A stretch of DNA of 64,000 nucleotides from an uncultured Candidatus Rokubacteria bacterium (GTDB lineage Bacteria > Methylomirabilota > Methylomirabilia > Rokubacteriales > DASRDR01): contig CAWDVE010000017.1 of assembly GCA_963805625.1 (NCBI GenBank), positions 1 to 64,000 on the forward strand, read 5' to 3'. Made by a program: the position numbers and the translations under genes. Positions within the stretch are counted from its first letter, which is position 1. Every line of letters starts with the position of its first letter. Below the pieces are notes generated by a model that was given only the letters and a program-made list of their open reading frames with translations, was not told where the DNA came from and searched no databases. Shown here piece after piece: positions 24,571 to 64,000 of the stretch.

Positions 24571-24603
24571 GCCCTCGGCGGTGTTTGCAGCACCGCCGAG
24601 GGC
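24571..24603 (-). terminator. GC-rich hairpin closing cassette copy 1
   Basis: 13-bp perfect stem GCCCTCGGCGGTG/CACCGCCGAGGGC just past the stop codon. Confidence 0.6.
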
Positions 24604-24614
24604 GTCTTCGCGTC

Positions 24615-24848
24615 TTACGTCAGCAACTCCGGATCGAGGCTGATCAGGTCGTTATGAGCCATCCCGACGGCCAGCTCGCCGCCCGTCTTCAGGAGCTCAT
24701 CGTGTGGGATGGCCCGGGCCGTTCGCTGCCCTTCGACCTCCAACGCGCGGGCCAGCCAGTCGGCCAGCCTCAGATTGGGCCCCGCGGCGACGGTGTACCA
24801 CCGCTGTCCATCGAGCTCCGCAGACGCCACCTGGACGTAGACAATCAT
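24615..24848 (-). CDS. 77-aa unknown protein, cassette gene B copy 1
   Basis: ORF conserved with 53279..53512. Confidence 0.75.
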   Translation of the reverse strand: MIVYVQVASAELDGQRWYTVAAGPNLRLADWLARALEVEGQRTARAIPHDELLKTGGELAVGMAHNDLISLDPELLT

Positions 24849-24863
24849 CCGAGCGGCCCCGGT

Positions 24864-25277
24864 CTAGGACGCGGCCTCGCTGAGAATCTTGACCTCGATC
24901 ATCTGGCGCCCCAGCGCCTGGGCCACGAGGTACGCGGCGTAGTCGTCGTACATCACGAGCGCGCCGCTCTCATCACGGTAGACGTGCCACACCATGGCAC
25001 CCGCTAGAACGCGCTGGACGATGGCCGCGTGAAGCGAGGGCTCCTCGCGGAGCGATGCACGGACGCGATGGAGGGTCTGCGGGTGATGTACTCGGAGCGA
25101 CGCGAGCGGAACCGTGGCCCCGACGACCGACACGGTCCCCTGAATCAGACCGACCTCGAGCGCCACCAGGCGCTCATCGCGGGGCGAGTTGAGATGGGCT
25201 GGCGCCTTGAGGTTCTTGACGGCAATCCTCCTCGGCGTCCGAGGCTGAGGCTTCTCAGACCGACGCTTCCGACCCAT
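24864..25277 (-). CDS. 137-aa protein, possible degenerate ParB/Srx fold, cassette gene A copy 1
   Basis: AGGAGGG RBS; three conserved copies in the window; LVMYDDYAAYLVAQALG..IEVKIL. Confidence 0.75.
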   Translation of the reverse strand: MGRKRRSEKPQPRTPRRIAVKNLKAPAHLNSPRDERLVALEVGLIQGTVSVVGATVPLASLRVHHPQTLHRVRASLREEPSLHAAIVQRVLAGAMVWHVYRDESGALVMYDDYAAYLVAQALGRQMIEVKILSEAAS

Positions 25278-25976
25278 GAGGTCCCTCCTGTTCCATGACA
25301 GCGAACCCCTGTCTGTCGAGTCCCATGCTTTGAGGGTTCCTCATCTTGGGTAGGTGCCCGGCGGCTCCCGACGACCGACCCTACCAAGCCCCCGCCCCGG
25401 GCGCTAGACGGGCTCCGACGCCGTCGCCGTGTCCGGCGTATACTCAAGGTGCCTTCCAGGGGACCGCGGGGTAGTCACGGTCCCCCCTTGGCATCTGGCT
25501 TGGGTAGTTCCCCTCCGTGCGCATGGCGCTCCAACGTTCGGGGCGCGTGTGGAGGACCTGCCAAATGTCGCTGACCACCAGATGGCGGTCCGTATCCGCG
25601 CCCGGCCGATCCGGCGGTGCGGCGAGTTGCTTGCGATGAAGCCGGGAAAGAACCAACACGAGGGCAACGGTGCTAGGGGGGCGTTCCCCCTAGCAGAGCC
25701 CACGCGGCACGAGACGCGGGCCTCTCAAGAGATCAAGCACACGGCTCTCCGGGTAGCGAAGCCTCCAGAGTCAGACTTCGACGCCGCCGTGGATCGCCTA
25801 CGCCGGGTCCTCAACGCGGTCCGCGATGCCCAGGAGATGCTGGAGCGGCTCGTCCGCACGGGGCCCGTCGCGGGACGGTCGACTCTGTCGGCCTCGATCG
25901 AAGACCTCGAATGGACGGCCGTGGAGCTGTCGACCGCCTTGGCCGGGCTCCAGGAGCCCGACAGCGAAGCGTCGCG

Positions 25977-42666: not shown

Positions 42667-42707
42667 TTGACAGTACAGTACTACTGTACTATTGTACTGA
42701 TACAGTA
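42667..42707 (+). promoter_or_regulatory. sigma70-type promoter with GntR operator box 1
   Basis: TTGACA(42667)-N17-TATTGT; box TGTACTATTGTACTGATACA at 42685-42704; extra palindrome AGTACAGTA-C-TACTGTACT at 42672-42690. Confidence 0.8.
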
Positions 42708-43828
42708 TGAGGATCCCAATGCGCCTGCGTGTGGATGCCCACAGCCCGATCCCGATCCGCTGGCAGCTGACGGAGCAGCTGAAGCACGTCATCGAGGGCA
42801 ACGGCGTCCCGCGAGAGCAGGCGTTGCCGAGCATCCGGGAGCTGGCGGGCTTCCTCGGCATCAATCCGAACACGGTGGCGCGCGCGATCGAGGATCTGAA
42901 GCGGAGCGGGCACGTGAAAGCGCGGCGGGGCAAGGGGGTGTTTGTGGCCCCCGCGCGGCGCGCCCGCCCGTTCCCGGCTCGCCGCGAGGCCTTCCTGAAG
43001 GATGCGGTGATCCGCGGGGCGGCCCTCGAGATGACCCCCGACGACGTGGCGGTGGGTGTCCTGAGCATGGCTGGCGTCGGGTTGGCCGCCCTCCGGGGGG
43101 CCGCCGCGGTGCTCCTCGTCGAGTGCAGTCCGCCGGAGCTGGACTTCTTTGGGCGGGAACTCGAGGCGCACCTTCCGGTCCGCGTGGACAAGGTGCTCCT
43201 GAAGGACTTGGCGACCACCGTCCGACGGCAGACGGGGGCCCATCACTGGGCCGCTGCGGTCACCAGCTTTGGCCATCTCCCGGAAGTGGAACGCCGGCTG
43301 GACGGCCTGGGGGTCCCGGTGGTCGCGCTCCTCGCCGAGGTGCATCTGGAGACCCTCCACCGCCTGGCCCAGCTGCCGTCAGGGACGCGGATCGGCGTGG
43401 TCTCCGCCGAGCGCGAGACCGCCCACAACCTGGAGCACTCGATCGCCCACGCGGCCCTGCCGAACATCGCGCGGATCGAGGCCGGCCCGGCCGAGGGACC
43501 GGCGCTGAGTCGGCTGGTGCGGCGGGTGGACGCCATCGTCTGTTCCACCGCGGTCGCCGCGCGGGTTCAGGCGCTCGTGGGGCCCACGGTGCCGGTGATC
43601 GTCGACGACCGGGCCCTCAACCAGCGGGCCATCCAGATGCTCGGGGCCATCCTGGCGCAACAGGACGGCGACCACCCGACCGCCACGCCCCCTCTCGCTC
43701 GGGGGCGCCTGGGTCCTCGTCCAGTCCGAGCGTCCCCCGCCAGGCCGCATCCCCGGGGAGACCACAACGGCCCGGTCAGGCAGTGGAGCCATCACCCGAT
43801 GAAGGGAGACGAGTCATGCATGTCGTGA
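42707..43828 (+). CDS. GntR-family regulator: YtrA/PlmA-type wHTH plus large alpha/beta C-terminal domain
   Basis: VDAHSPIPIRWQLTEQLK...LPSIRELAGFLGINPNTVARA...RRGKGVFV; C-terminal layout recalls cyanobacterial PlmA. Confidence 0.88.
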   Translation: MRIPMRLRVDAHSPIPIRWQLTEQLKHVIEGNGVPREQALPSIRELAGFLGINPNTVARAIEDLKRSGHVKARRGKGVFVAPARRARPFPARREAFLKDAVIRGAALEMTPDDVAVGVLSMAGVGLAALRGAAAVLLVECSPPELDFFGRELEAHLPVRVDKVLLKDLATTVRRQTGAHHWAAAVTSFGHLPEVERRLDGLGVPVVALLAEVHLETLHRLAQLPSGTRIGVVSAERETAHNLEHSIAHAALPNIARIEAGPAEGPALSRLVRRVDAIVCSTAVAARVQALVGPTVPVIVDDRALNQRAIQMLGAILAQQDGDHPTATPPLARGRLGPRPVRASPARPHPRGDHNGPVRQWSHHPMKGDESCMS

Positions 43829-44067
43829 TGTGGGTGCTCGTGGCGGTGTTGGCCGGCTTGGTGGCCGGGTTCGTCATGAAGCGCGGGGGTTACGGGCGGG
43901 GATGGGACGTCGCCCTCGGACTCATCGGGAGCGTGGTCGTGAGCTGGGTCTTCCAGAGCCCGTGGGTCTCTCCCGACCCGGGCATGATGGCGGTGACCCT
44001 CGTCGCGGCCGCCGGCGCGGCGGGCCTGATCGTCGCCCAGCGCACGATCTTTCCCGCCGGCGCCTAG
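43816..44067 (+). CDS. GlsB/YeaQ/YmgE-family stress membrane protein
   Basis: WVLVAVLAGLVAG..MKRGGYG..WDVALGLIGS. Confidence 0.8.
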   Translation: MHVVMWVLVAVLAGLVAGFVMKRGGYGRGWDVALGLIGSVVVSWVFQSPWVSPDPGMMAVTLVAAAGAAGLIVAQRTIFPAGA

Positions 44068-44147
44068 GACCCGTCATGTGGATTGAGTCATCCCGGCGCG
44101 CCGCGCCGGAGTCCGACCAACGTCGTGATCATCGGGGAGGAGCCAAC

Positions 44148-44540
44148 ATGGACGCGAATCGAGACAAGCGGAGTGTGGGACAGCGGTGGAGTGACGCACG
44201 ACCGAGCAAGACCGTGCTCTTCTGGTCTTGCGTCGCGTCGATGGTGCTGACGATGATCGTCGGCTTCAGCTGGGGCGGCTGGGTCACGGGGGGCACGGCC
44301 CGGGCCACGGCGGAGACCATGGCCCACGACGCCGTCGTTACGCGCCTGGCCCCGATCTGTGTCGTCCAATCTGGGCGGGATCCGGCCAACGCCGTGAAGC
44401 TCGTGGCGCTGAAAGACGAGAGCTCGTGGCAGCGCGGCGAGTATATCGGCAAGCAGGGGTGGGCGACGATGCCGGGTGAGCAGGAGCCCGATCGCCGAGT
44501 GGCCGAGATGTGCGCCACACTGCTCATGCCGAGGAGCTAG
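44148..44540 (+). CDS. Membrane-anchored hypothetical protein with two Cys
   Basis: GFSWGGWVT...PICV...SWQR..Y....GWATMPG...CA; paralog of 47117..47467. Confidence 0.75.
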   Translation: MDANRDKRSVGQRWSDARPSKTVLFWSCVASMVLTMIVGFSWGGWVTGGTARATAETMAHDAVVTRLAPICVVQSGRDPANAVKLVALKDESSWQRGEYIGKQGWATMPGEQEPDRRVAEMCATLLMPRS

Positions 44541-44812
44541 TTCTGGAGCGGCGCCCGAGGAGATGGCTCCCCCCTGGAGCCATCTCCGCCCGACTTCTGG
44601 CCACGATTGGGCGCGTGGAGATGGCCCTCGAGCGCCACGTGCGTCGCCCGGCCCGTCCGCACGCGCGTGCGTGATCGGCCGGCCACCGACGTGGTAAGAA
44701 TCCCGCCCGGATCGGCCCTCACGGCAGAAGAGACGCCGAGCGAGCGGTCGGCGGCTTCAGCGGGAGCTCGAGAACGGGCCGTGCTGTGCGGGGGATCGAG
44801 GAGACCGTGACC

Positions 44813-45298
44813 ATGGAAGAGCCAGAAGACCTGAGGCGGGCCACGGAGCTCTGGCAGGAGGCCTACCGCCACCAGATGGAGGGCGAACTGGATCGCGCCA
44901 TGGAGCGCTACCAGCGGTCCATCGACGTCTACCCCACCGCGGAGGCGCACACCTTCATGGGCTGGGCCCTGAGCGTCCAGGGCCGATTGGACGAGGCCAC
45001 CGACGAGTGCCGCCGGGCGATCGAGATCGACCCGCAATTTGGCAATCCATATAACGACATCGGGGTCTATCTGACGCAGCAGGGCAAACCGGATGAAGCC
45101 ATCCCCTGGCTGGAGAAGGCCAAGCAGGCGACACGCTATGAGCCGCGGCAGTTCCCGTTTATGAACCTGGGTCGGATTTACCTCAGGCAGGGGCGCTGGT
45201 GGGAAGCGCTGCGGGAGTTCGAGGGGGCGGTGCGGTCGGCTCCGGATGACCGTGCCGCTCGCAGGGCGCTCCATGTCCTCCGCGCTCGCTTCAACTGA
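44813..45298 (+). CDS. TPR-repeat protein
   Basis: PTAEAHTFMGWALS, GNPYNDIGVYL, MNLGRIY. Confidence 0.82.
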   Translation: MEEPEDLRRATELWQEAYRHQMEGELDRAMERYQRSIDVYPTAEAHTFMGWALSVQGRLDEATDECRRAIEIDPQFGNPYNDIGVYLTQQGKPDEAIPWLEKAKQATRYEPRQFPFMNLGRIYLRQGRWWEALREFEGAVRSAPDDRAARRALHVLRARFN

Positions 45299-45546
45299 CC
45301 CGGTCTGGTGCGGTCACGGTTCACCCTGCCGGGGTCGGAGAGCGGGTGGGGGAAGGTCGAAGGTCAAGCGATACGACGCGATAAAATTCCGTCGCCCCTT
45401 CTGGCCCGACGGTTGCCTGGCCTTCTGGGTTGAGCCCAAACGGTTTCGGCTGGTGTGGCGTCGAGAGGCGACGCTCACGGTGACCGCCTGCGATGAGCCA
45501 GGCGGGTGGCGGCCCGGAATTGGCGACCTCAAGGGGAGGCCCATCG

Positions 45547-46403
45547 ATGGAATCGGCCCTCTACGTCGTCCCGGTGCTCATCATCATCGTCGCGTTCCTG
45601 TCCACGGCGATCAAGGTCCTTCGCGAGTATGAGCGGGCCGTCATCTTCCGGCTCGGCCGGCTGATCGCCGCCAAGGGCCCCGGCCTCGTCCTGCTCATTC
45701 CGCTCGTGGACAAGATGGTCAAGGTGAGCCTGCGCACGCTGGCCATGGAGGTTCCCCCGCAGGATGTGATCACGCGCGACAACGTCTCCGTCAAGGTGAG
45801 CGCGGTGGTGTGAGCGCGGTGGTGTTCTTCCGGGTCCTGGATCCCCGGAACGCCGTGGTCCAGGTCCAGGACTTCCTCTTCGCGACCTCCCAGATCGCCC
45901 AGACGAACCTCCTAGCCTCGCGCGACAAGATCAACCAGCAGCTCCAGCGGATCATCGACGAGCACACGGGTCCCTGGGGGGTGAAGGTGACGACGGTCGA
46001 GGTGAAGCAGGTGGACCTGCCGCAGGACATGCAGCGGGCGATGTCGAAGCAAGCCGAGGCCGAGCGGGGGCGGCGGGCTAAGGTCATCAACGCCGAGGGC
46101 GAGTACCAGGCGGCGGAGAGGCTCGCGCAGGCCGCCCGAGTGCTGGCCGGCACCCCGATCGCCGTCCAGCTCCGGTTTCTGCAGACGATGCGGGAGGTGG
46201 CCTCGGAACGAAACACGACCACCTTCGTCCCCGTGCCCATCGATCTCGTTGCGCCCTTCCTGACCGCGCGCCAGAAGCCGCTCTCGCCCCTGATTCTCGC
46301 CGACGCGCGGAGCGGAGGGCGCGTGGTCGGGTCAGGTCAGGCGAGTGGCGGAGGAGGACGGAGTGCCCGGGTGCTCGGTGAAGACGCGGCTGGACGCCAA
46401 TGA
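45547..46403 (+). pseudogene. SPFH/stomatin-like (slipin) gene, disrupted
   Basis: [27 protein letters not shown]; 14-bp tandem duplication at 45796-45823 shifts the frame; apparent internal deletion after AQTN. Confidence 0.85.
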
Positions 46404-46429
46404 ACACCACACTGGGAGGGCGGAACGCG

Positions 46430-47068
46430 ATGCGAACCTGGCGACTCTCGACCCTGGCGGCAGGATTCACGGTCGTGATGACGGGGCCGGGATTCTTGGC
46501 CGACACCGTCCGGGTATTCCGGTATGATGGCGGCCTTCAATGCGGAATGGGGCAGGCCGTGCCCTTGGATGACATGGCGAAGGAGCTCACGGCCGTCAAC
46601 ATCACAGTCCTCTCAAGTGAGAAGCGAGTCGTGCCGGGCTTCATCATCGCCCTGTGTGGCGCCCCGACCGGCACCGCGAACGTCTATGAGATCGCAAAGG
46701 ATGATGTGCCGCGAATCCCGGCTGACCCACAGGGAGTCAAGAGATTTCAGTCCTGGGTGTATGACGATCCCTCACTCGACGTCGCGAAGTATGACGGAAG
46801 CCTGCAATGTGACATGGGGCAACCCGTGTCACTGGACCAAATGGAGAAGGAGTTGCACGCCGCGAACATCGCCGTCGAGGCCAAAGCGAAGAAGGCGGAT
46901 GGGATTCAACACCCCCGGATGTGCGGAGCGTCGACGGGCACGATGAACGTGTATCGGATCAAGACGTCAGACCTGGAGAAGGCTCGAGCATTAGGCTTCG
47001 TTCTGTACATTGAAGGGATCTCGATCGCGAGAGCTCGAGCGGGGAGTCACGTGGCGAGGCGACCCTGA
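46430..47068 (+). CDS. Secreted protein with two tandem Cys-containing repeats
   Basis: YDG.LQC.MGQ.V.LD.M.KEL...CGA.TGT.NVY.I occurs twice. Confidence 0.7.
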   Translation: MRTWRLSTLAAGFTVVMTGPGFLADTVRVFRYDGGLQCGMGQAVPLDDMAKELTAVNITVLSSEKRVVPGFIIALCGAPTGTANVYEIAKDDVPRIPADPQGVKRFQSWVYDDPSLDVAKYDGSLQCDMGQPVSLDQMEKELHAANIAVEAKAKKADGIQHPRMCGASTGTMNVYRIKTSDLEKARALGFVLYIEGISIARARAGSHVARRP

Positions 47069-47116
47069 ACACGTCAGCGATGCAGACCGCGCCGCGCCAT
47101 GGTGGGGTCGGCGCGC

Positions 47117-47467
47117 TCATTTCTTGAAGAGCAGCTCAAGCCCATCGGCACATCCCCGAGCGACCGCATAGCCACCCTCTTTTTGCCCTGGCATCTTGTC
47201 CCAGCCCCCTTTTTCGATGGCTTCCGCTCTCTGCCAGCTCCCGAGTTCCGAGAGTTCTTTCAGTTTCGCTTCGTGGTTCGGTTCCTTCATAAATTGGGCG
47301 ACGCAGATCGCCGCCTGACTCGCCACCACCGCGTCTTGGGTCCTCGTGTGGCTCGTGCTGGAGGTGGTCCAGCCACCCCACGCAAAGCCGAGGATCATGG
47401 CGATGACGGCCCCACAAATCAGGCCCCACACTCCATACTTAATCTTCGCGGTCGTCTCTGGCTTCAT
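47117..47467 (-). CDS. Membrane-anchored hypothetical protein, paralog of 44148..44540
   Basis: GFAWGGWTT...AICV...SWQR....GWDKMPG...CA. Confidence 0.75.
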   Translation of the reverse strand: MKPETTAKIKYGVWGLICGAVIAMILGFAWGGWTTSSTSHTRTQDAVVASQAAICVAQFMKEPNHEAKLKELSELGSWQRAEAIEKGGWDKMPGQKEGGYAVARGCADGLELLFKK

Positions 47468-47562
47468 CGACACGGCCTCCTGACACTCACGGGAAGTTCT
47501 ATGGACCGATGTCCGCCCCTGTCGTGGCGCGCCGCGATCGGACACTTCCTCTTGATCAGTTT

Positions 47563-47800
47563 CGAGGATCTTGTCAATTGTGTGGAAACAACCTCAGGCG
47601 GCAGCCTTCTCATGGGCGGTGGCCTCGATCGGTGTGACTCGGATCCCATCCGTGTACGGCACGCCCTCCACCACCTTGGCAGGAGCGCGGGGGCCTTCAG
47701 CGTGCGGAAGCGTTGCTCCACGATCCGTCGCATCTTCCCGATGACGGCCGTCGCGGTCGCCACCTTCATGGACCGCGTCGCCGCCGCCGTCCGCAGCCGC
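47563..47800 (-). mobile_element. IS256-family 3' remnant
   Basis: KVATATAVIGK...EQRFRTLKAP tail and TTTCCACACAATTGACAAGATCCTC-type end. Confidence 0.55.
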
Positions 47801-47818
47801 ACCGCCGCAACGAGTCAC

Positions 47819-48106
47819 TCACGACGACGCCGGCCCGTCGGGTCCAGGGCACGGATCAGGGGCTGACTCGGGCACTGTGTCCCCGGGGTGTGGGGTCCAC
47901 GTCCCCGCGGCATACTCGCGCAAGGCCTGCAGGAGGATCCAGCGGAGCGTGGTCCTCTCGCGCCGGGCGCGGGCCCGTGCGGCCCGTTGAAGACCGCGGG
48001 GCACGCCGCGCACCAGATAGATACCGGTGGTTGCTATCCGAGCCAGCACGCGAGCCGACATGCGGGGGCCCACGCCCCCGGGTGCGTCCACAGGTCGCAC
48101 CATCAT
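47819..48106 (-). CDS. Possible ribbon-helix-helix DNA-binding protein
   Basis: YLVRGVPRGLQRAARARARRERTTLRWILLQALREYA; GAGGAGGG RBS. Confidence 0.55.
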   Translation of the reverse strand: MMVRPVDAPGGVGPRMSARVLARIATTGIYLVRGVPRGLQRAARARARRERTTLRWILLQALREYAAGTWTPHPGDTVPESAPDPCPGPDGPASS

Positions 48107-48208
48107 GGTTCCCTCCTCACGCAGAGCGCAGCGGTTCTCCAGACCGTGAAGGCATGCGAGCTCGCCGTGACGAGCGCCCTCGGGCATCGGAGGCCGTTCG
48201 GACACGAA

Positions 48209-48490
48209 TCACGAGAGGGGTATCCGGGAACGAGGGAGTGCACCGTCATCTGTTCGGTCCCGCGTTCGCATCCCCGGCAGCGACAGTCTTCCGGCGAACA
48301 TCAAAAAGTCTGCGACGCCAAAGAGATCGGTATAGGTCGTCCCGTTCCAGCGGAGGGATACGAACGGCTCGGGTGTGTGACGCTCCTCGAAGTCGATCGC
48401 ATACTTCTCGAGAAGGCCCTTTGCCCGGTGTGCGTCCTTGGTGCCATTCAAGTACAACGTCGGCTTGGGGGGCGGATCCGTCCAGTTCAT
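48209..48490 (-). CDS. Small glutaredoxin-fold-like protein lacking CxxC
   Basis: TLYLNGTKDAHRAKGLLEKYAIDFEE...SLRWNG..Y..LFGVADFL. Confidence 0.4.
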   Translation of the reverse strand: MNWTDPPPKPTLYLNGTKDAHRAKGLLEKYAIDFEERHTPEPFVSLRWNGTTYTDLFGVADFLMFAGRLSLPGMRTRDRTDDGALPRSRIPLS

Positions 48491-48643
48491 CCCAGGCCTG
48501 AACTCCGTTCGGGAACCGCTCGTCCGCCATGAGGATAAGGGACGCACGAGAATTGGCCCGTGGGCATCCGGTGCTGACCGGCGGATCGAGGTTGGACTGT
48601 GCGCATCCGCGGGCGGATCCATCGGGATTCTCCAAGACTGTAC

Positions 48644-48682
48644 TGTATTACTACATTAGTACACTAGAGGACCGTGAGTCAA
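48644..48682 (-). promoter_or_regulatory. Promoter with GntR operator box 2
   Basis: Minus strand TTGACT-N18-TAATGT; box TGTACTAATGTAGTAATACA (48663-48644). Confidence 0.75.
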
Positions 48683-48767
48683 GCGCTCCCCCAATGCCGC
48701 CGCTCCTCTCCGGTGACCGGCGGACCCTCGACGCCCAGCCAGCGGAACCAGTGGACGTGATTGCGAT

Positions 48768-48795
48768 TGTATTACTGTACTAGGATAGTGATACA
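48768..48795 (+). promoter_or_regulatory. GntR operator box 3 upstream of groES
   Basis: TGTACTAGGATAGTGATACA at 48776-48795 containing TAGGAT; extra half-site TGTATTA at 48768. Confidence 0.75.
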
Positions 48796-48857
48796 CTAGG
48801 AGCGATCGACGCACCACTCACCGCGCTCACACCCGCCAAGAGGGAGGTCCCCGAACC

Positions 48858-51060
<2,203 letters not shown>

Positions 51061-51079
51061 TGAGAGGAGAGGAGTACGC

Positions 51080-52106
51080 ATGGCCCAAGGCGGCTGGGGT
51101 CAGGGACCGATTGATATCGGCCGCGGGTTCACCATTCACCTGCCGTCGTTTTTACAGTCCCGCGCACGGATGGTGCGGCTGGTCGTGATCGCGATTGCCG
51201 TCCTCGTCCTTCTGCTCACCGGCTACTACCAGGTGGAGCCCGACGAGGTGGCCGTGGTCCAGCGCTTCGGCAAGTTCGTGCGTACCACCGACCCCGGTCC
51301 GCACGTCAAGATCCCCTTCGGCGTGGAGACCGTCACCAAGGTCCCGGTGAAGCGGACGCTGAAGATGGAGTTCGGCTTCCGCACCGTGCGGCCCGGCATC
51401 CACACCGAGTTCGCGCCGCCCAGCGACGAGACGCGCGCCGAGTCCATCATGCTCACCGGCGATCTGAACGTGGCGGTGGTCGAGTGGATCGTGCAGTTTC
51501 GCATCAAGGACCCCCGCCAGTTTCTCTTCGACGTGCGCGACGTGCCCAAGACCTTCCGGGACATGTCGGAGGCGGTCATGCGCGAGGTGGTGGGGGACCA
51601 CAGCGTGGACGAGGTCATCACCATCGGCCGTGATGCCATCGGGCTCCAGGCGAAGGAGCAGCTGCAGAAGCTCTGCGACCGCTACGGGATCGGGATTGAC
51701 GTCCAGCAGCTCGTGCTCCAGGACGTGAACCCACCGGACGCGGTGAAGCCGGCCTTCAACGAGGTGAACCAGGCCATCCAGGAGAAGGAGCGGGCCATCA
51801 ACGACGCCTGGGCCGAGTACAACAAGGCGGTGCCGCGGGCGAAGGGCGAGGCGGAGCAGGCGGTGCGCTCGGCCGAGGGCTACGCGCTCGAGCGCGTGAA
51901 CCACGCCGAGGGTGACGCCAAGCGCTTCGACGCGATCTGACGCGGAATACAAGAAGGCCCCCGCGGTCACGCGCCGGCGCATCTACCTCGAGACGATGGC
52001 CCAGCTCCTGCCCAAGCTCGGCCGCAAGCTGATCCTCGACGACAAGGCCAAAGGCATCCTGCCCCTCCTTCAGCTCGACGGTGAGACGAAGGAGGTGAAG
52101 CCGTGA
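51080..52106 (+). CDS. hflK: FtsH modulator HflK with a +1 frameshift near 51938
   Basis: MLTGDLNV, LQDVNPP..VKPAFNEV, AEGDAKRF; removing one base restores IYAEYKKAPAVTRRRIYLETM. Confidence 0.9.
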
Positions 52107-53038
52107 GGCCCCCGCTTCGCTTCATCGTCGCGGCCGTCATCCTCGTGCTCCTGTTCTCGTCCGTCTACACCGTCTCGGAGACCGAGCAGGCCATTCTCGT
52201 CCAGTTCGGCATGCCGGTGGGCGGTCTCGTCAAGGATCCCGGCCTGCACCTGAAGGTGCCGTTCATCCAGGACGTGCATCGCTTCGACAAGCGCTGGCTG
52301 GAGTTCGACGCCGATCCCCGCGAGATCCCCACCAAGGACAAGAAGTACATCTGGGTGGACACCTATGCGCGGTGGCGCATCGTCGACCCCCTGCGCTTCT
52401 ACCAGGCCGTGCGCGACGAGCGCGGGGCGCAGAGCCGGCTCGACGACGTCGTCCACGGTCAGACGCGCAACGCGGTGGCGTCGTTCGACCTCATCGAGCT
52501 GGTCCGCTCCAGCGACCGGCCCTTCCAGATCACCGAGGAGCTGGAGGGGATCGGCGCCGCCGAGGCCATGGCCAAGATCATGTCGGGCCGCGAGAAGATC
52601 GCCCAGATCGTCCTGAAGAGAGCCGCGGAGATCACGCCCCCCTACGGGATCGAGCTGGAAGACGTGCGCTTCCATCGGATCAACTACGTGGAGACGGTGC
52701 AGCAGAAGGTCTTCGAGCGGATGATCTCGGAGCGGAAGCGGATCGCCGAGCGCAGCCGCTCCGAGGGCCAGGGCCGCGCCGCCGAGATCCGCGGGCAGAA
52801 AGAGCGCGACATGCTGGCCGCCTCGTCGGTCGGCTACAGGACCGCGCAGGAGGTGAAGGGCGCGGCCGACGCCAAGGCCACGGCCATCTACGCCCACGCC
52901 TACAACAAGGACCCGGACTTCTACCAGTTCTGGAAGACGATGGAGACGTTGCACAGCAGCCTGGACGAGAAGACCTGGCTCATTCTCTCCACCGACTCGG
53001 AGCTGCTCAAGTACCTGAAAGACAGCGGCGGGCGCTGA
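52103..53038 (+). CDS. hflC: FtsH modulator HflC
   Basis: PGLHLKVPFIQ, TKDKKYIWVD.YARWRI.DP, RMISERKRIA, DPDFYQF. Confidence 0.93.
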   Translation: MRPPLRFIVAAVILVLLFSSVYTVSETEQAILVQFGMPVGGLVKDPGLHLKVPFIQDVHRFDKRWLEFDADPREIPTKDKKYIWVDTYARWRIVDPLRFYQAVRDERGAQSRLDDVVHGQTRNAVASFDLIELVRSSDRPFQITEELEGIGAAEAMAKIMSGREKIAQIVLKRAAEITPPYGIELEDVRFHRINYVETVQQKVFERMISERKRIAERSRSEGQGRAAEIRGQKERDMLAASSVGYRTAQEVKGAADAKATAIYAHAYNKDPDFYQFWKTMETLHSSLDEKTWLILSTDSELLKYLKDSGGR

Positions 53039-53278
53039 CCGCTCACCTCTCCACGGGTACCATGAGGGCACGGCGCGTGACTCCCGGCGCCTGAGGTTGT
53101 CCTTCGCCAACACTCCGTCCAGCGGAGAGACGGTTGATGCCTCGGCCCTGATCCGGAGACACTCGTCGTCCCATGACCGGCTCCACCTCGTTCGCCGCAG
53201 AGGAACGGGCAGAGTCGGAGCAGCTGTCACGCCGCCCCCGGCGGTGTTGAGCCGCACCGCGCGGGGGCGTCTTTGTGA

Positions 53279-53512
53279 CTACTTCAGCAACTCCGGATCG
53301 AGGCTGATCAGGTCGTTATGGGCCATCCCGACGGCCAGCTCGCCGCCCGTCTCCAGGAGCTCGTCGTGTGGGATGGCCCGGGCCGTTCGCTGCCCTTCGA
53401 CCTCCAGCGTGCGGGCCAGCCAGTCGGCTAGCCTCAGATTTGGCCCCGCGGCGACGGTATACCACCGCTGCCCATCGAGCTCCGCCGACGCCACCTGTAC
53501 GTAGACAATCAT
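53279..53512 (-). CDS. Cassette gene B copy 2 (77 aa)
   Basis: Near-identical protein to 24615..24848. Confidence 0.75.
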   Translation of the reverse strand: MIVYVQVASAELDGQRWYTVAAGPNLRLADWLARTLEVEGQRTARAIPHDELLETGGELAVGMAHNDLISLDPELLK

Positions 53513-53534
53513 CCTCGCTGCCCCTGTCGCATCT

Positions 53535-53948
53535 CTAGGACGCGGCCTCGGCGAGAATCTTGACCTCGATCATCTGGCGCCCCAGCTCCTGGGCCACGAG
53601 GTACGCGGCGTAGTCGTCGTACATCACGAGCGCCCCGCTCTCATCGCGGTAGACGTGCCACACCAGGGCGCCCGCCAAGGCGCGCTGGACGATAGCCGCG
53701 TGGAGCGAGGGCTCCTCGCGGAGCGAGGCGCGGACGCGATGGAGGGTCTGCGGGTGATGCACTCGGAGCGACGCGAGCGGGACGGTGGCCCCGACGACAG
53801 ACACGGTCCCCTGAATCAGACCGACCTCGAGCGCCACCAGACGGTCATCGCGGGGCGAGTTGAGAGGGGCCGGCGCCTCACGGTGCTTGACGGCAATCCT
53901 TCGCGCCGTCCGATGCTGCGGCTTCTCAGGCCGACGCTTCCGACGCAT
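53535..53948 (-). CDS. Cassette gene A copy 2 (137 aa)
   Basis: Near-identical protein to 24864..25277. Confidence 0.75.
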   Translation of the reverse strand: MRRKRRPEKPQHRTARRIAVKHREAPAPLNSPRDDRLVALEVGLIQGTVSVVGATVPLASLRVHHPQTLHRVRASLREEPSLHAAIVQRALAGALVWHVYRDESGALVMYDDYAAYLVAQELGRQMIEVKILAEAAS

Positions 53949-54008
53949 GAGGTCCCTCCTTTCCCATGACGGTCACTCCAACAGCGCCGTCCCCGGCACG
54001 CCGAGGGA

Positions 54009-54215
54009 TCATCTGACCAGGTCCTCGACCTTGATCCGAAGCGCCTTCGCGAGGCTGTGCAAGGTGCTCAACGGCGGGTCGTAACGGCCGGCCTCGATCT
54101 TGTTCACGTACTCGCGGCTGAAGCCGGCGCGATCCGCCGGAGCGGCCTGACTGAGCGTCCTCGCCTGCCGGAGCTTTCTGAGTGTCACGCCCACTTGCCT
54201 TGGTGTCGGCGTCAT
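54009..54215 (-). CDS. XRE-family HTH regulator
   Basis: LRKLRQARTLSQ...AGFSREYVNKIEAGRYDPPLSTL..LAKAL. Confidence 0.82.
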   Translation of the reverse strand: MTPTPRQVGVTLRKLRQARTLSQAAPADRAGFSREYVNKIEAGRYDPPLSTLHSLAKALRIKVEDLVR

Positions 54216-55089
54216 TCGATGTGAACCCTCAGTTTCACTGTCAAGAATCGCTGCCAGCACGAAACCAGGCGTCGGTCACGCCTCCACCGCCGAGTTCGCA
54301 TACTCGATCCAGCGGTCGATCCGGCGCAGCCACCGGTGGAGATGGGGCGGGCTGGTCCGGAAGGTGACCCGGGCGCCCTCGAGCCCCAGGCGGCCGAGCT
54401 CCGGCGTATACCGCTCGGGCGTCAGCGCGGGCGGCGGCCGGAGAAAGGCGGCGCGCCACGCCGGCGAGGGGACCGCACTGAGCGCGACCTCGTAGAGCGC
54501 TTGGGACGGCGTGGCCAGGGCGATCGGGTGGGGTGGACGCCGAACCCGGCGGATGGCCAGGGGCCGTTCAGCGCGGCCTCGCCGGCCCGGGCTCACGGAA
54601 GCGCGTCCTGGCGCCGCACCATGTGGAAGCCCAGCACGTCCTACGCGTTCGGCCGCGGCCATCGCCGATGCCGCCGGCGCCGGTCGACCGCAGCCGACCG
54701 GCCGGGCGTCCGTCGCTCGCGCAGCCGCCGGTCCCAGCTCACCGTGACGCCCTCCCATGGCCTCGCCGTCAGCCATCCATCGAGGGCGCTGCACGACGAC
54801 CAGGTGCACTCCGTCGTCCCCCAACTCTCCCGGCTGTGGCCCCGCCCGACCCTACCAAGAGCTCGCTTCCGGCGCCAGACGGGGCCGCGACGGCAAGCCG
54901 GGAAGCGCGATACCGTGGACGCTCTCGGGACACGCTCGGATCGGCCGTGGCGGCAGCTTCCCAATGCCGGCTGCGCGCGGCTGACCCTCCCGAAGAGTCA
55001 GTTGCTGACCCCGCGGATCTGCCCGCACTCGGTTGCCGAAGGACTCCCCGCCGTGGCCCCGTCACCGCCGCGGCCATGGCTCTTTGCCC

Positions 55090-55128
55090 TTGACCAATGT
55101 TGTACTAGTGTACTATGATAGTCATACA
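55090..55128 (+). promoter_or_regulatory. Promoter with GntR operator box 4
   Basis: TTGACC-N18-TATGAT; box TGTACTATGATAGTCATACA at 55109-55128; extra half-site TGTACTA at 55101. Confidence 0.8.
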
Positions 55129-55130
55129 GT

Positions 55131-55345
55131 ACGGAGGATCCTGATGCGCCTGCCCGTCGATGCCCACGGCCCGATCCCGGCCCGCTCGCAGCTCACGGAT
55201 CAGCTGAAGCACGTCATCGAGGGCGGCGGCGTCCTGCGGGACAAGCCGGCTTAGCATCCGGGAGATGGCCGGTGGCCTCAGGCAGCAATCCGAATCCGGC
55301 GGCGCGCGCCATCGAGGATCTCAAGCGGAGCGGATACCGGCCGCT
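55131..55345 (+). pseudogene. Decayed copy of the gntR 5' region
   Basis: RILMRLPVDAHGPIPARSQLTDQLKHVIEG, then stop and frameshifts; DNA homology extends to GCCATCGAGGATCTCAAGCGGAGCGG. Confidence 0.85.
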
Positions 55346-55476
55346 CCACCCTTGCCCAGAGGCGCCTTGAGCCCTCGTCCATCCCGGGGGCGCCCACCGT
55401 CAAAGGGCGCCACGCGTTGAGACGGCGAAGGGGACGGGACGCGGGTGAGCCGTAATCCGGTGAAGGAGGACGAGTC

Positions 55477-55740
55477 ATGAACAATCTCGTCATGCTTGCG
55501 CTGTGGGTGCTTGTGGGGCTGTTGGCCGGCTGGCTGGCCAGGGTTGTCGTGAAACACGGAGGCTACGGGATGCGGGAGGACCTCTTCCTCGGTCTCGTCG
55601 GGAGCCTCGTGGGAGGCGGGATCGTCTGGACCCTGGGGGCCTCTCCGGAAGCGGGGATGGTGGCGGCGGCGGGTGTCGCGTTCGTCGGGGCGGCCATCGT
55701 GATCGTCCTGCAGCGCAAGATTTGGCCCGCGATCACCTAG
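55477..55740 (+). CDS. GlsB/YeaQ/YmgE-family membrane protein
   Basis: WVLVGLLAGWLA...GGYG..EDLFLGLVGSLVGG. Confidence 0.85.
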   Translation: MNNLVMLALWVLVGLLAGWLARVVVKHGGYGMREDLFLGLVGSLVGGGIVWTLGASPEAGMVAAAGVAFVGAAIVIVLQRKIWPAIT

Positions 55741-55771
55741 GTACTTAACCTACGACAAGGGAGGACGCACC

Positions 55772-56215
55772 ATGAACGTCAGAGAGCTTGACGACCTGCA
55801 AAGCCGCCTCGCGACCTTCGCGCAATTCTTCGGGCGCGCCCCGGTGCGGGCACCCAACGGTAAGGAAGAAGCGCTGACCGTCGCGGAGTGGGCCCCTCTA
55901 GTGGACATCGTCGAAGACGACAAGCAGTACCTCATCAAGGCCGAACTGCCCCAGGTCACGAAGGCCGACGTCAAAGTCACGGTCCAAGATGATGTGCTCA
56001 CGATCACCGGGGAGCGGACCTTCGAGAAGGAAGCGAATGGCAAGAAGTATCACCGCGTGGAGCGGGCGTACGGCCGCTTTGGCCGGAGCTTCACGATGCC
56101 GGAAGACGCGGATGGCAACGGGGTGGTGGCCGAGTACAAAGACGGCGTGCTCGAGGTCCACCTCCCGAAGTCGGAGAAGGCCAAGCCCAAGACCATTGAG
56201 GTGAAGATCGGATAG
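55772..56215 (+). CDS. Small heat-shock protein Hsp20
   Basis: WAPLVDIVE, AELP, LTITGER, ERAYGRFGRSF, YKDGVLEVHLPK. Confidence 0.93.
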   Translation: MNVRELDDLQSRLATFAQFFGRAPVRAPNGKEEALTVAEWAPLVDIVEDDKQYLIKAELPQVTKADVKVTVQDDVLTITGERTFEKEANGKKYHRVERAYGRFGRSFTMPEDADGNGVVAEYKDGVLEVHLPKSEKAKPKTIEVKIG

Positions 56216-56401
56216 TGATCACGGAGGGTGTGCGGGGCGAGCGCTTGGTGCTAGCCCCGATTCGGGCATGATGGATCGGTCTTGGTTCGGGAGCCTCTTC
56301 CCGGGCCAAACCGGTCCAGTGGTCTCGGTGACCGATCCGTGGTATCGACGGACCAGGGACGAGCGTTGCTCGTGCCGCCCACCCTTCACGCTGGAGGCCA
56401 C

Positions 56402-56836
56402 ATGCTCACGCCAGGAGACAAGGCGCCCGACTTCGTGGGCCGCGATCACAACGGCAAGACCGTGCGGCTGTCGGACTTCACCGGGAAGCCCGTCGTCCTG
56501 TGGTTCTTTCCGAAGGCCGACACACCGGGGTGAATGGCGGAGGGTTGCGGGTTCCGCGACCTTAAGTCGGAGTACGACAAGAAGGGAGCCGTCGTCCTCG
56601 GCGTCTCCTTCGATACCCCCGCCGAGAACAAGGCGTTCGCCGACAAGTACCGCTTCAACTTCTCGCTGATTTGCGACACCGATCGGAAGATTGGCACGGC
56701 CTACGGCGCCAACGCCGATCCCGACAAGGGCGCGCAGCGCGTCGGTGTGGTGATCGCCAGGGACGGCACGATCAAAGAGTGGCACGCGAAGGTGGATGCC
56801 CGGAGCTGGCCGGCGCAGGTCGTGCAGACGTTGTAG
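56402..56836 (+). CDS. bcp: Selenocysteine-containing peroxiredoxin (Bcp/PrxQ type), 144 aa
   Basis: GGAGG RBS; FFPKADTPG-TGA(56531-56533)-MAEGCGFRD puts UGA at the peroxidatic Cys; the frame stays open to TAG. Confidence 0.88.
56543..56561 (+). promoter_or_regulatory. Bacterial SECIS hairpin
   Basis: GGTTGCGG-GTT-CCGCGACC starting 10 nt after the UGA, G at the loop start; resembles the E. coli fdhF SECIS. Confidence 0.78.
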
Positions 56837-59622: not shown

Positions 59623-59657
59623 GGTGTTTACGCACCGCGGCGGGGGCGTTTTTGCGC

Positions 59658-59891
59658 CTACTTCAGCAACTCCGGGTCTAGGCTGATCAGGTCGTTATGG
59701 GCCATCCCGACGGCCAGCTCGCCGCCCGTCTCTAGAAGCTCGTTGTGTGGGATGGCCCGGGCCGTTCGCTGCCCTTCGACCTCCAGCGCGCGGGCCAGCC
59801 AGTCGGCCAGTCACAGATTGGGCCCCGCGGCGACCGTGTATCACCGCTGACCATCGAGTTCCGCCGACGCCACCTGGACGTAGACAATCAT
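59658..59891 (-). pseudogene. Cassette gene B copy 3 with two in-frame TGA stops
   Basis: Codons for W17 and R27 of the other copies read TGA. Confidence 0.8.
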
Positions 59892-59914
59892 TCCTCGCTA
59901 CCCCTGTCGCATCT

Positions 59915-60328
59915 CTAGGACGCGGCCTCGCCGAGAATCTTGACCCCTACCATCTGGCACCCCAGCTCCAGAGCCACGAGGTAGGCGGCGTAGTCGTCGT
60001 ACATGACAAGCGCGCCGCTCTCGTCTCGGTAGACGTGCCACACCATGGCTCCCGCCAAGACGCGCAGGACGATGGCCGCGCGGCGCGAGGGCTCCTCGCG
60101 GAGCGATGCGCGGACACGATGGAGGGTCTGCGGGTGATGCACCCGGAGCGAGGCCAGCGGGACCGTGGCCCCAACGGCGGACACGGTTCCCTGAATCAGG
60201 CCGACCTCGAGCGCCACCAGACGCTCATCGCGGGGCGAGTTGAGATGGGCCGGCACCTCAAGGTTCTTGACAACAATCCTCCGCGGCGTCCAATGCTGAG
60301 GCGTCTGAGGCCGACGCTTCCGACGCAT
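59915..60328 (-). CDS. Cassette gene A copy 3 (137 aa)
   Basis: Intact ORF, same length as copies 1 and 2. Confidence 0.75.
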   Translation of the reverse strand: MRRKRRPQTPQHWTPRRIVVKNLEVPAHLNSPRDERLVALEVGLIQGTVSAVGATVPLASLRVHHPQTLHRVRASLREEPSRRAAIVLRVLAGAMVWHVYRDESGALVMYDDYAAYLVALELGCQMVGVKILGEAAS

Positions 60329-60703
60329 GCGATCCCTCCTTTCCCATAGCGGTCACTCCCGCCGCGCCGTCACTGGCCCGCTCGCGCGGGGCGTCTTCAC
60401 GGCGTCAGGACGACCGATCGGGCGGCCGGCGATTGGCGCGTCGCGCCTTCACCCGGGCCTCGTCGAGCCGACGTCCCGCGCCCTCGCTCGCGTGGCACAT
60501 CGCCGTGCTCCGGTCGCCTAGCGCCAGAGACCCGCTGCGCACCTACCGAGCTTCTGAGGGCGGCGAGCGCTTCCTGACTTCCGTCGGCCGCATGGTCCTG
60601 CGTACGGCCAGCGCCGTGCCAACCATCATGCGCTCGCTCGGGGGCAACCGTCCCGGAAAGCGCCATCGGCCCCCGAGACTCCACCGGCTGATGTTCAGTC
60701 GCG

Positions 60704-62277: not shown

Positions 62278-62514
62278 ATGCGGCTCATGAAAGTGCCGGA
62301 GGTGGCGGACATCCTAGGGCTCCAGCCCGTAACCATTCGCCGCATGATCCACGACGGCCGGTTGCCGGCAGTGCGCCCGACTGGCGGGCGCGCCGTCAGG
62401 GTTCGGGCTGAGGACGTTGAGCTACTCGTGCGGTTCGGAATGAGCGGTGCAGGCCGAGGGGACATAGCAGCGAAGAGCGGCAGGCGCCCGCTCAGGCGAC
62501 CGCCGGAGCGGTGA
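62278..62514 (+). CDS. Excisionase-like HTH protein
   Basis: LMKVPEVADILGL...TIRRMI.DGRLPAVR. Confidence 0.82.
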   Translation: MRLMKVPEVADILGLQPVTIRRMIHDGRLPAVRPTGGRAVRVRAEDVELLVRFGMSGAGRGDIAAKSGRRPLRRPPER

Positions 62515-63677: not shown

Positions 63678-64000
63678 ATGATGGAGCGGGGCCGCGGTCG
63701 TGTGTATAGGCCGACCTACCGAGATCGGCGAACCGGGGAACTCAAGGCGTCGGCGGTCTGGTGGATATCGTTGCCGATTCAGGGGGAGAAGGGTCCAGAG
63801 AAACACCGGCAATCCTCGCACTCGACCAAGCGGTCCGACGCGGTGAAGCTGCTAAATGAGAAACTCGGGGACGTTGGTCGAGGGCTGCTGATCGGTCCGA
63901 GCGTCGAGAACACAATGTTTGCAGACTTGGCAGATATGCTGATCGAGAACCTCATGGCGAACGGGCGGCGATCCGTGGACCGCGCCAAGCGATCCGTCGC
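63678..64000 (+). CDS. Tyrosine integrase, N-terminal part (runs off the window)
   Basis: Manual translation RGRGRVYRPTYRD...VWWIS...RQSSHSTKRSDAVKLL...TMFADLADML. Confidence 0.7.
   Translation, partial: MMERGRGRVYRPTYRDRRTGELKASAVWWISLPIQGEKGPEKHRQSSHSTKRSDAVKLLNEKLGDVGRGLLIGPSVENTMFADLADMLIENLMANGRRSVDRAKRSV

Follow-up and report, generated by a model that had tools for sequence, protein, structure and literature searches.

Few regulators of groESL are known, namely HrcA, HspR, and alternative sigma factors. GntR-family proteins of the YtrA type are repressors that act on long (~24 bp) palindromes with distant half-sites (PMC8060467, PMC6746942). Bacillus subtilis YtrA represses via AGTGTA-13bp-TACACT (PMC8060467), and no biological ligand is known for any YtrA protein (PMC6746942). 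PlmA (Sll1961) is described in PMC5923263 as a YhcF/YtrA-like region (residues 3-133) joined to a modelled effector domain of two approximately four-stranded subdomains, with a C229-C307 disulfide that is reduced by thioredoxin. PlmA is defined as cyanobacteria-only (PMC5083789, PMC4494728), with a minimum of 38% identity across 200 aa relative to Synechococcus elongatus PlmA (PMC5083789). Here we analyze the first 64 kb of contig C17 (the window) of an uncultured Candidatus Rokubacteria assembly, which comprises 7.27 Mb in 28 contigs and has an estimated contamination of 6.26% that bears on copy counts. In the window, a gntR gene and a groES-groEL pair lie behind similar AT-rich palindromes (boxes). 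We infer binding, repression, and induction, and consider it quite probable that the adjacent GntR binds the boxes as a dimer and represses both gntR and an accessory groESL lacking the controlling inverted repeat of chaperone expression (CIRCE), until a signal arrives. We read the locus in this way because the boxes are conserved, the promoter register is fixed, box and regulator co-occur in one clade, CIRCE is excluded from boxed genes, and the domain anatomy of the protein fits.

A first-pass annotation of the window had noted four AT-rich boxes, and all four are present, as 20-mers at 42685 (+), 48644-48663 (-), 48776 (+), and 55109 (+). The box pattern gives four matches in the window and none across 100 shuffles (mean 0.00), and boxes 1-4 score 29.0-34.3 bits with a weight matrix built from 57 boxes of relatives only. 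The accompanying elements were also confirmed: TTGAC lies 17-18 nt 5' of TAnnnT at boxes 1, 2, and 4, and an extra half-site lies 8 nt upstream of boxes 1, 3, and 4. These elements and the genes at issue are:

42667..42672, + strand: TTGACA, the gntR promoter's -35 hexamer, separated by 17 nt from TATTGT within box 1
42677-42683, + strand: extra half-site of box 1
42683..42706 (core 42685-42704), + strand: box 1, predicted to serve in autoregulation as an operator; its 24-bp form includes the flanking AC...GT
42707..43828, + strand: gntR, 373 aa, near-leaderless, with its ATG start 2 nt past box 1
48575..48631, - strand: remnant of a gntR 5' end, frameshifted over the region of the helix-turn-helix (HTH) in L002-L004
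48644..48663, - strand: box 2, promoter and predicted operator of a decayed divergent gntR, with -35 TTGACT at 48682-48677
48776..48797 (box 48776-48795), + strand: box 3, before groES
48789-48797, + strand: likely extended -10 of box 3, TG-A-TACACT, in the register of relatives
48858..49214, + strand: groES (Cpn10), accessory copy without CIRCE
49276..50920, + strand: groEL (Cpn60), accessory copy, with one extra base near 50781-50784
55090..55128, + strand: -35 TTGACC plus box 4 (55109-55128), a second copy of the promoter at box 1
55135..55337, + strand: gntR pseudogene, HTH region only, frame broken

The idea that these boxes are four independent operators had to be given up. The box-4 region shares 82% DNA identity over 234 nt with 42678-42909, which covers box 1 and the gntR start, and leads into a broken gntR HTH region and then glsB2. 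After box 2, some 60 nt of a gntR 5' end survive, a remnant that extends across the HTH in the relatives L002-L004. The first-pass annotation had overlooked these remnants, the broken frame of slipin, and the +1 frame breaks of groEL and hflK. By sequence comparison, boxes 1, 2, and 4 are copies of one gntR promoter, and box 3 alone is of the other type. Because boxes 2 and 4 precede decayed gntR copies, the window is best described as holding two promoter types rather than four independent operators. Boxes 2 and 3 jointly are the decayed form of a divergent unit, groEL-groES <- box, box -> gntR-glsB. A 97% identical box 2/box 3-groESL module, minus hflK and most of hflC, lies at C13:407918-411163.

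We then compared the boxes with those of 72 related loci, 63 of which include upstream sequence. A box with at most 2 mismatches lies within 105 nt of the gntR start in 59 of these 63 (that of L029 being the divergent box). Column counts give the consensus of a 24-bp palindrome, A[CG]TGTACTA-6-TAGTACA[CG]T. The first-pass annotation had placed a -10 hexamer at box positions 6-11 throughout. This assignment stands for the gntR boxes, which have TAnnnT there in 49 of 60 cases, TTGAC 17-19 nt upstream in 42 of 60, and an ATG directly after the box in 52 of 60, but is not supported for box 3. Specifically, 35 of the 36 groES boxes, versus two of the 60 gntR boxes, carry TGnTAnnnT at positions 14-22, and the groES boxes depart from the palindrome at position 15, keeping TGnTAnnnT. 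We predict that the gntR promoter uses the -10 at positions 6-11 behind TTGAC and is near-leaderless and autoregulated, and that the groES promoter likely uses the extended -10 at positions 14-22. In both promoter types the -10 would lie beneath a bound dimer, which would result in repression. The same regulator and sites could instead activate groESL, self perhaps being repressed, in line with the absence of TTGAC from all 36 groES promoters, as is often the case in activator-dependent promoters, and with the site of the PlmA ortholog PMM1637, which lies 55-57 nt upstream of yfr2 (PMC6191309). We regard activation as very unlikely, as the box holds a conserved extended -10 (35/36) that can work without a -35 and would lie under the dimer, and YtrA proteins are repressors in the literature cited above. 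It is equally hard to credit that the motif is kept merely as promoter DNA spread by duplication, its operator function gone at least in the decaying island. Three of the four window boxes are indeed copies, and several downstream genes are broken; however, the terminal TGTA/TACA positions of both arms are kept in 54-57 of 57 boxes although the -10 sits at different places in the two promoter types, and the arms are kept before the unrelated genes groES, hsp20, DUF3309, and rpsU. Other modes of groES control were also sought. Single-sequence folds gave no common structure over the ribosome site of the groES leader that would resemble an RNA thermometer, and scans with consensus sequences gave three matches resembling the HspR-associated inverted repeat, none at boxed promoters, and no CtsR match.

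A YtrA-type GntR regulon including groESL is supported, and here the first-pass annotation was borne out. It had named a lack of box conservation upstream of groES as a refuting outcome, and this outcome did not occur: within the 72 loci, 36 of 38 groES genes are boxed and none has CIRCE. The intact layout groEL-groES <- box, box -> gntR-glsB, counted by eye, occurs in at least 16 of the 72 loci, often with the divergent boxes 40 bp apart. According to codon-model gene calls made for the related loci, the first gene after 150 boxes is gntR at 59 loci, groES at 36, glsB at seven, rpsU at five, and an 88-aa protein gene at five. Frequent neighbors are genes for FtsH (15 loci), an RRM protein (16), fatty-acid desaturases (13 and 6), Hsp20 (9-10), and a TPR protein (8-10), and no ABC transporter or catabolic gene recurs downstream of the boxes in these loci. 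The hflKC, slipin, and peroxiredoxin genes had been taken as the core of the regulon; because hflK lies near the regulator in one, slipin in two, and peroxiredoxin in none of the 72 loci, we regard them as local passengers. In this genome, the relatives-only matrix finds 17 sites of at least 22 bits, versus one in the reversed genome. The 17 sites are spread over six contigs (C7, C10, C13, C14, C17, and C24) and precede three intact gntR copies plus remnants, three groES genes, two hsp20 clusters, a DUF3309/GlsB/AI-2E cluster, and an NmrA pair. At C10:2131300-2132400 (L076:11448-14368), two boxes lie between DUF3309 genes and lead into the CsbD-like/AI-2E/GlsB cluster. General-stress genes include those of the GlsB, DUF3309, and CsbD-like types, and in other organisms cold induces RRM, desaturase, and rpsU genes. 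At L059:4044-4244 and at four other loci, rpsU (S21) is present as a boxed copy, often close to the RRM protein and a fatty-acid desaturase, and this neighborhood hints at a cold or membrane-fluidity theme.

The boxed groESL does not simply stand outside HrcA control, as had been assumed. The genome encodes hrcA and keeps two CIRCE groESL copies, with a perfect CIRCE before the C18 groES and one of 2 mismatches before C17:526660, and the boxed groESL are extra copies beside them. The reported absence of CIRCE from the window was confirmed up to 4 mismatches. We then counted both elements in 201 genomes of the phylum. CIRCE occurs in 185, including five unpublished genomes (G152, G047, G101, G029, and G058). 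The loose box pattern was confounded by a second palindrome, TGTACCAACnnGTYRGTACA, and a stricter pattern was substituted. The strict groES-type box occurs in 38 of the 201 genomes, with none for the backwards control. All 38 lie within the 59 genomes with the GntR clade (by our own count, 52 with full-length proteins and seven with fragments at 54-70% identity), and none among the other 142, which consist of 43 genomes with distant homologs only and 99 without a real match. Without the unpublished G029 and G101, the strict box occurs in 36 of 57 clade genomes, and none of our conclusions hinges on the unpublished genomes. Among 71 distinct full-length groEL genes, scored for either element up to 800 nt upstream in a set enriched for boxed copies by the way it was gathered, 38 have the box, 27 have CIRCE, none has both, and six have neither. 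In a quick groEL tree, the 24 boxed copies outside the own-family cluster split from all CIRCE copies (support 99), whereas within the own family 14 boxed copies cluster together with the CIRCE copies of that family (92, unstarred). This pattern suggests a possible recapture or conversion from the native gene. On the same sequence comparisons, the box and GntR probably constitute a second control system placed on accessory chaperonins.

The co-occurrence also bears on whether another YtrA-type protein, either a short YtrA or a member of a sister clade, is the true binder and the adjacent gntR a passenger. The genome has further GntR HTH proteins, and a sister GntR clade (~33% identity; L096-L114, ~6000-7300) with look-alike boxes exists, mostly at a fixed site near rarA/ddl/murG, with one similar box and a conserved 68-aa upstream open reading frame. 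Set against this, strict groES-type boxes are confined to clade genomes (38/38; 0/43 with distant homologs only), and the sister gene is missing from its usual rarA site in this genome, so that we give another binder little chance. The sister and groES-linked clades rarely share a genome and are nearly mutually exclusive: they were found together in two genomes, with part of the candidates scored. The second palindrome occurs about once per genome across one family (f2), also where the GntR clade was not found, with examples at G031:C81:18806 and G062:C122:16221 and perhaps at C21:359115 of the present genome; it is probably another regulator's operator. Close homologs of the GntR also lie in bins labelled Actinomycetota, Gemmatimonadales, and Patescibacteria (L061, L070, L056, and L066; L070 has a boxed groESL), which may reflect transfer or misbinning.

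The regulator belongs to the GntR superfamily (PF00392, 42.5 bits versus a cut-off of 27). It consists of a winged HTH plus YtrA dimer helices (residues ~1-123), a two-lobed alpha/beta domain (~130-321), and an unconserved tail. The winged HTH aligns with 4u0v (Z 14.5, rmsd 1.0 over 78 residues), and profile positions 3-122 match whole YtrA-type structures (4ham, 3neu, and 6sbs; E 6e-27 to 2e-24). The modelled dimer interface at residues 88-123 scores 0.43 versus 0.00 for the best control; of the reference cases, 20 of 30 solved homodimers and one of 23 single chains attain the mark; in these runs contact agreement was at least 52% and pLDDT at least 72, with zinc included and unscored. The dimer model may owe its pass to memory of solved YtrA dimers. 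Residues 130-321 are modelled (pLDDT 93) as two four-stranded alpha/beta lobes, and this clamshell resembles the PrpR N-terminal domain (Z 10.3, rmsd 4.5, 174 aligned), type I binding proteins (5xss; Z 9.1, rmsd 4.4, 191 aligned), and glutamate racemase. The domain had no match to a named NCBIfam family or in a PDB sequence search. PF27163 (YmtS_Ross) is precomputed on most homologs at 63-76% identity, an annotation of the relatives and not of our own scan. The groES-linked GntR clade forms one side of a branch (20/20 rows, support 100) and is found in Rokubacteria/Methylomirabilota.

We then inspected the residues that might receive the signal. Cys140 and His190 are invariant in 84 of 84 aligned sequences, which were hand-picked from 388 fetched proteins as hits to this GntR at 21-92% identity. 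A lobe-2 Cys at 233 or 279 is present in 69 of the 84, and Cys279 in all 16 close members. From the strand topology of the model we infer that Cys140, His190, and the second-lobe Cys share one cleft. A thiol change or a metal at Cys140/His190/Cys279 is our tentative choice of signal, put somewhat below even chance. It is also possible, with a little less confidence, that a small, amino-acid-like metabolite binds in the cleft. The clamshell fold shared with PrpR-N, binding proteins, and glutamate racemase speaks for a metabolite, as do distant homologs beside a glutamate mutase operon, a peptide ABC transporter, and an aminotransferase cluster; however, the boxes here precede genes for chaperones and membrane proteins, neither a transporter nor a catabolic gene recurs behind them, and the Cys/His invariance with a cross-cleft second Cys suits thiol or metal chemistry equally. 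A signal of any other kind seems unlikely. A phospho-cysteine reading, after the IIB enzymes of the phosphotransferase system (2few, Z 10.6, rmsd 2.9, 90 aligned), was rejected because no Gly-rich loop follows Cys140, although Cys140 stands after strand 1, which we take to be the IIB position as well. The distant homolog before the glutamate mutase operon (L084:4989-9412, Peptoclostridium) keeps Cys and His, as does one beside a parA-like gene on a Calothrix plasmid (L082:3965-4972). The Pfam name of PF27163 presumably comes from such a clostridial glutamate-mutase-linked gene.

Several observations weigh against the repressor reading. Related genomes are not independent samples, and the co-occurrence is overstated to that extent; 21 of the 59 clade genomes lack a strict box (the pattern is strict and genomes are incomplete), and two of the 38 groES genes are unboxed (L006 and L008). 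The motif is not unique to the clade, and sister-clade boxes precede only the sister gene itself and the 68-aa gene. The fold matches have middling scores, which single-lobe receiver domains equal, the invariance set was selected from hits to this very GntR, and two homologs beside catabolic genes (L083 and L119) lack the Cys/His pair. In the window, groEL, hflK, and slipin are frame-broken. The extra base of groEL, seen relative to the genome's C13 copy and two relatives, may be an assembly error or a real break, and the single-base breaks of groEL and hflK may both be assembly errors, since selB is also split.

On the reading we prefer, a GntR dimer would sit on the core promoters of gntR and groESL and keep both directions off. 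Release would follow a signal, for which the Cys140/His190 cleft in the two-lobed C-terminal domain is the most likely receiver. The ancestral unit, groEL-groES <- box box -> gntR-glsB, would have been duplicated and decayed in this genome, and glsB2-hsp20-peroxiredoxin and small genes would now be transcribed from the leftover gntR promoters. Induction would add a further dose of chaperonin, Hsp20, and small membrane proteins to what the HrcA/CIRCE system supplies. A bolder version, which we find rather doubtful, is that an undescribed GntR subfamily (YtrA core plus Cys/His clamshell sensor) is a second, HrcA-independent, thiol- or metal-gated chaperonin repressor that runs a proteostasis/membrane-stress regulon in Rokubacteria, native groESL copies having been removed from CIRCE control more than once.

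The Pfam scan agreed with the gene identities read earlier, namely GntR, TPR, Band 7, Cpn10, Cpn60, two further Band 7, HSP20, and AhpC-TSA. The remaining features of the window are:

43816..44067, + strand: glsB1, small GlsB/YeaQ-like membrane protein, 45% identical to glsB2
44148..44540, + strand: 130-aa membrane protein, no Pfam family, seen in 25/72 loci
44813..45298, + strand: TPR protein after a 273-nt gap, presumably co-transcribed with gntR, 10/72 loci
45547..46403, + strand: slipin/SPFH (Band 7) pseudogene, with a 14-bp insertion and a 36-bp deletion versus two intact relatives
46400..47068, + strand: predicted exported protein with two Cys-bearing repeats, no Pfam family
47117..47467, - strand: paralog of the 130-aa membrane protein, closing the box-2 cluster
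47819..48487, - strand: two small open reading frames, no family, downstream of the gntR remnant
51083..52106, + strand: hflK (Band 7), lineage-specific addition, +1 frame break near 51937
52103..53038, + strand: hflC (Band 7)
53234..54600, - strand: repeated mobile-type segment, XRE-family HTH, copies at 24571 and 59623
55477..55740, + strand: glsB2, weak Transgly_assoc match (PF04226, E 0.0012)
55772..56215, + strand: hsp20 (HSP20)
56402..56836, + strand: BCP-type peroxiredoxin (AhpC-TSA), likely selenoprotein
63678..64000 (ends at contig 64871), + strand: start of a tyrosine-integrase-like gene, family read by eye; context, not regulon
contig 64908-64983, - strand: tRNA-Phe, its 3' end adjoining the integrase-like gene

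The glsB family is present in 52 of the 72 related loci, and in most relatives glsB comes after gntR; glsB1 itself had no Pfam match in the domain scan. The peroxiredoxin has an in-frame TGA (56531-56533) at the redox Cys position, giving UxxxxC, followed by a hairpin at 56536-56568 (z -2.26; equally good in 4 of 200 shuffles). The genome also has selB (in two pieces) and tRNA-Sec, so that in-frame UGA, hairpin, and selenocysteine machinery together make the gene a likely selenoprotein gene. A FloA-like flotillin gene with an NfeD-like neighbor, read by eye, lies at the contig start (1313-3571), and FloA is also beside the cassette in three related loci.

The window is rich in insertion sequence genes and ends at the tyrosine-integrase-like gene beside tRNA-Phe, and the segment at 53234..54600 separates the box-3 module from the box-4 module. 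Excisionase-type HTH_17 genes lie at 62278 and 62986. The 3' end of tRNA-Phe occurs a second time at C24:94430-94495. A two-gene segment without a Pfam family, adjoining HTH genes, occurs three times (53234-54001, 24571-25299, and 59623-60381) and looks like a mobile-element end. The mobile markers of the window match three of 52 related loci of at least 12 kb, a comparison of limited sensitivity, and the C-terminal domain was found on no plasmid at E 0.1 and on no viral contig. With these counts and the sites on six contigs, the proposal of one mobile island was abandoned; judged from sequence, we see in this genus a patchy cassette with duplications, not a general mobile island.

In this abundant uncultured lineage another repressor family appears to own the extra groESL copies, which touches on the question of why bacteria retain more than one. 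The defined operator with two promoter types is testable in Escherichia coli. With its clear regulon and the well-folded pocket fused to it, this YtrA-type protein offers a handle on YtrA/PF27163 ligands and may inform PlmA.

A literature search, with most subscription journals outside it, returned no paper on a GntR protein controlling groESL or on the present family in Rokubacteria; the supplementary site tables of PMC4494728 could hold related YtrA regulons. Compared with YtrA proteins (B. subtilis YtrA and Sulfolobus acidocaldarius YtrASa, 6sbs), the regulator shares the winged HTH with two dimer helices, a long palindrome with the same half-sites and extra half-sites, autorepression (predicted here), and a small regulon with membrane proteins. 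It differs in having a two-lobed domain of ~190 residues where YtrA has a C-terminal domain of ~50, a spacer of 12 nt rather than the 13 printed for B. subtilis, divergent double sites, which PMC4494728 calls very rare for YtrA, and chaperonin targets instead of ABC transporter operons. With PlmA it shares, by description only, a YtrA-like N-terminus plus a two-subdomain alpha/beta effector domain, and the widely kept Cys134 of PlmA may, judging from position, match Cys140. The folded part here has only Cys140 and Cys279, however, and in a comparison by short motifs the C229-C307 disulfide of PlmA has no evident counterpart; the site (CGRE1) and targets of PlmA are also different, and the present clade is non-cyanobacterial. 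A cyanobacterial GntR cluster at 0.90 in the atlas is a lead only; the Calothrix plasmid GntR, which may or may not be a PlmA, aligns over the C-terminal domain (E 4.8e-18), and no PlmA structure was among the listed fold matches, which excludes nothing. The earlier likening to PlmA thus survives for architecture and not for membership, PlmA being cyanobacteria-only: going by description, the GntR is built like PlmA, yet is not to be filed as PlmA. GntR proteins with PF27163 form atlas clusters at 0.94-0.97 in Bacillota, Pseudomonadota, and Methylomirabilota; the inspected relatives sit by catabolic genes, unlike here, and a literature search by family name found no characterized member and no ligand of PF27163 proteins. 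As with HrcA/CIRCE, a repressor would act on an inverted repeat at the groESL promoter, but the protein family and the site are others, and extra copies are targeted while the CIRCE copies persist alongside. Taken together, the comparative evidence supports the regulon well, and its predicted repression logic is of the known YtrA type, joined to a sensor domain and a target class that are new.

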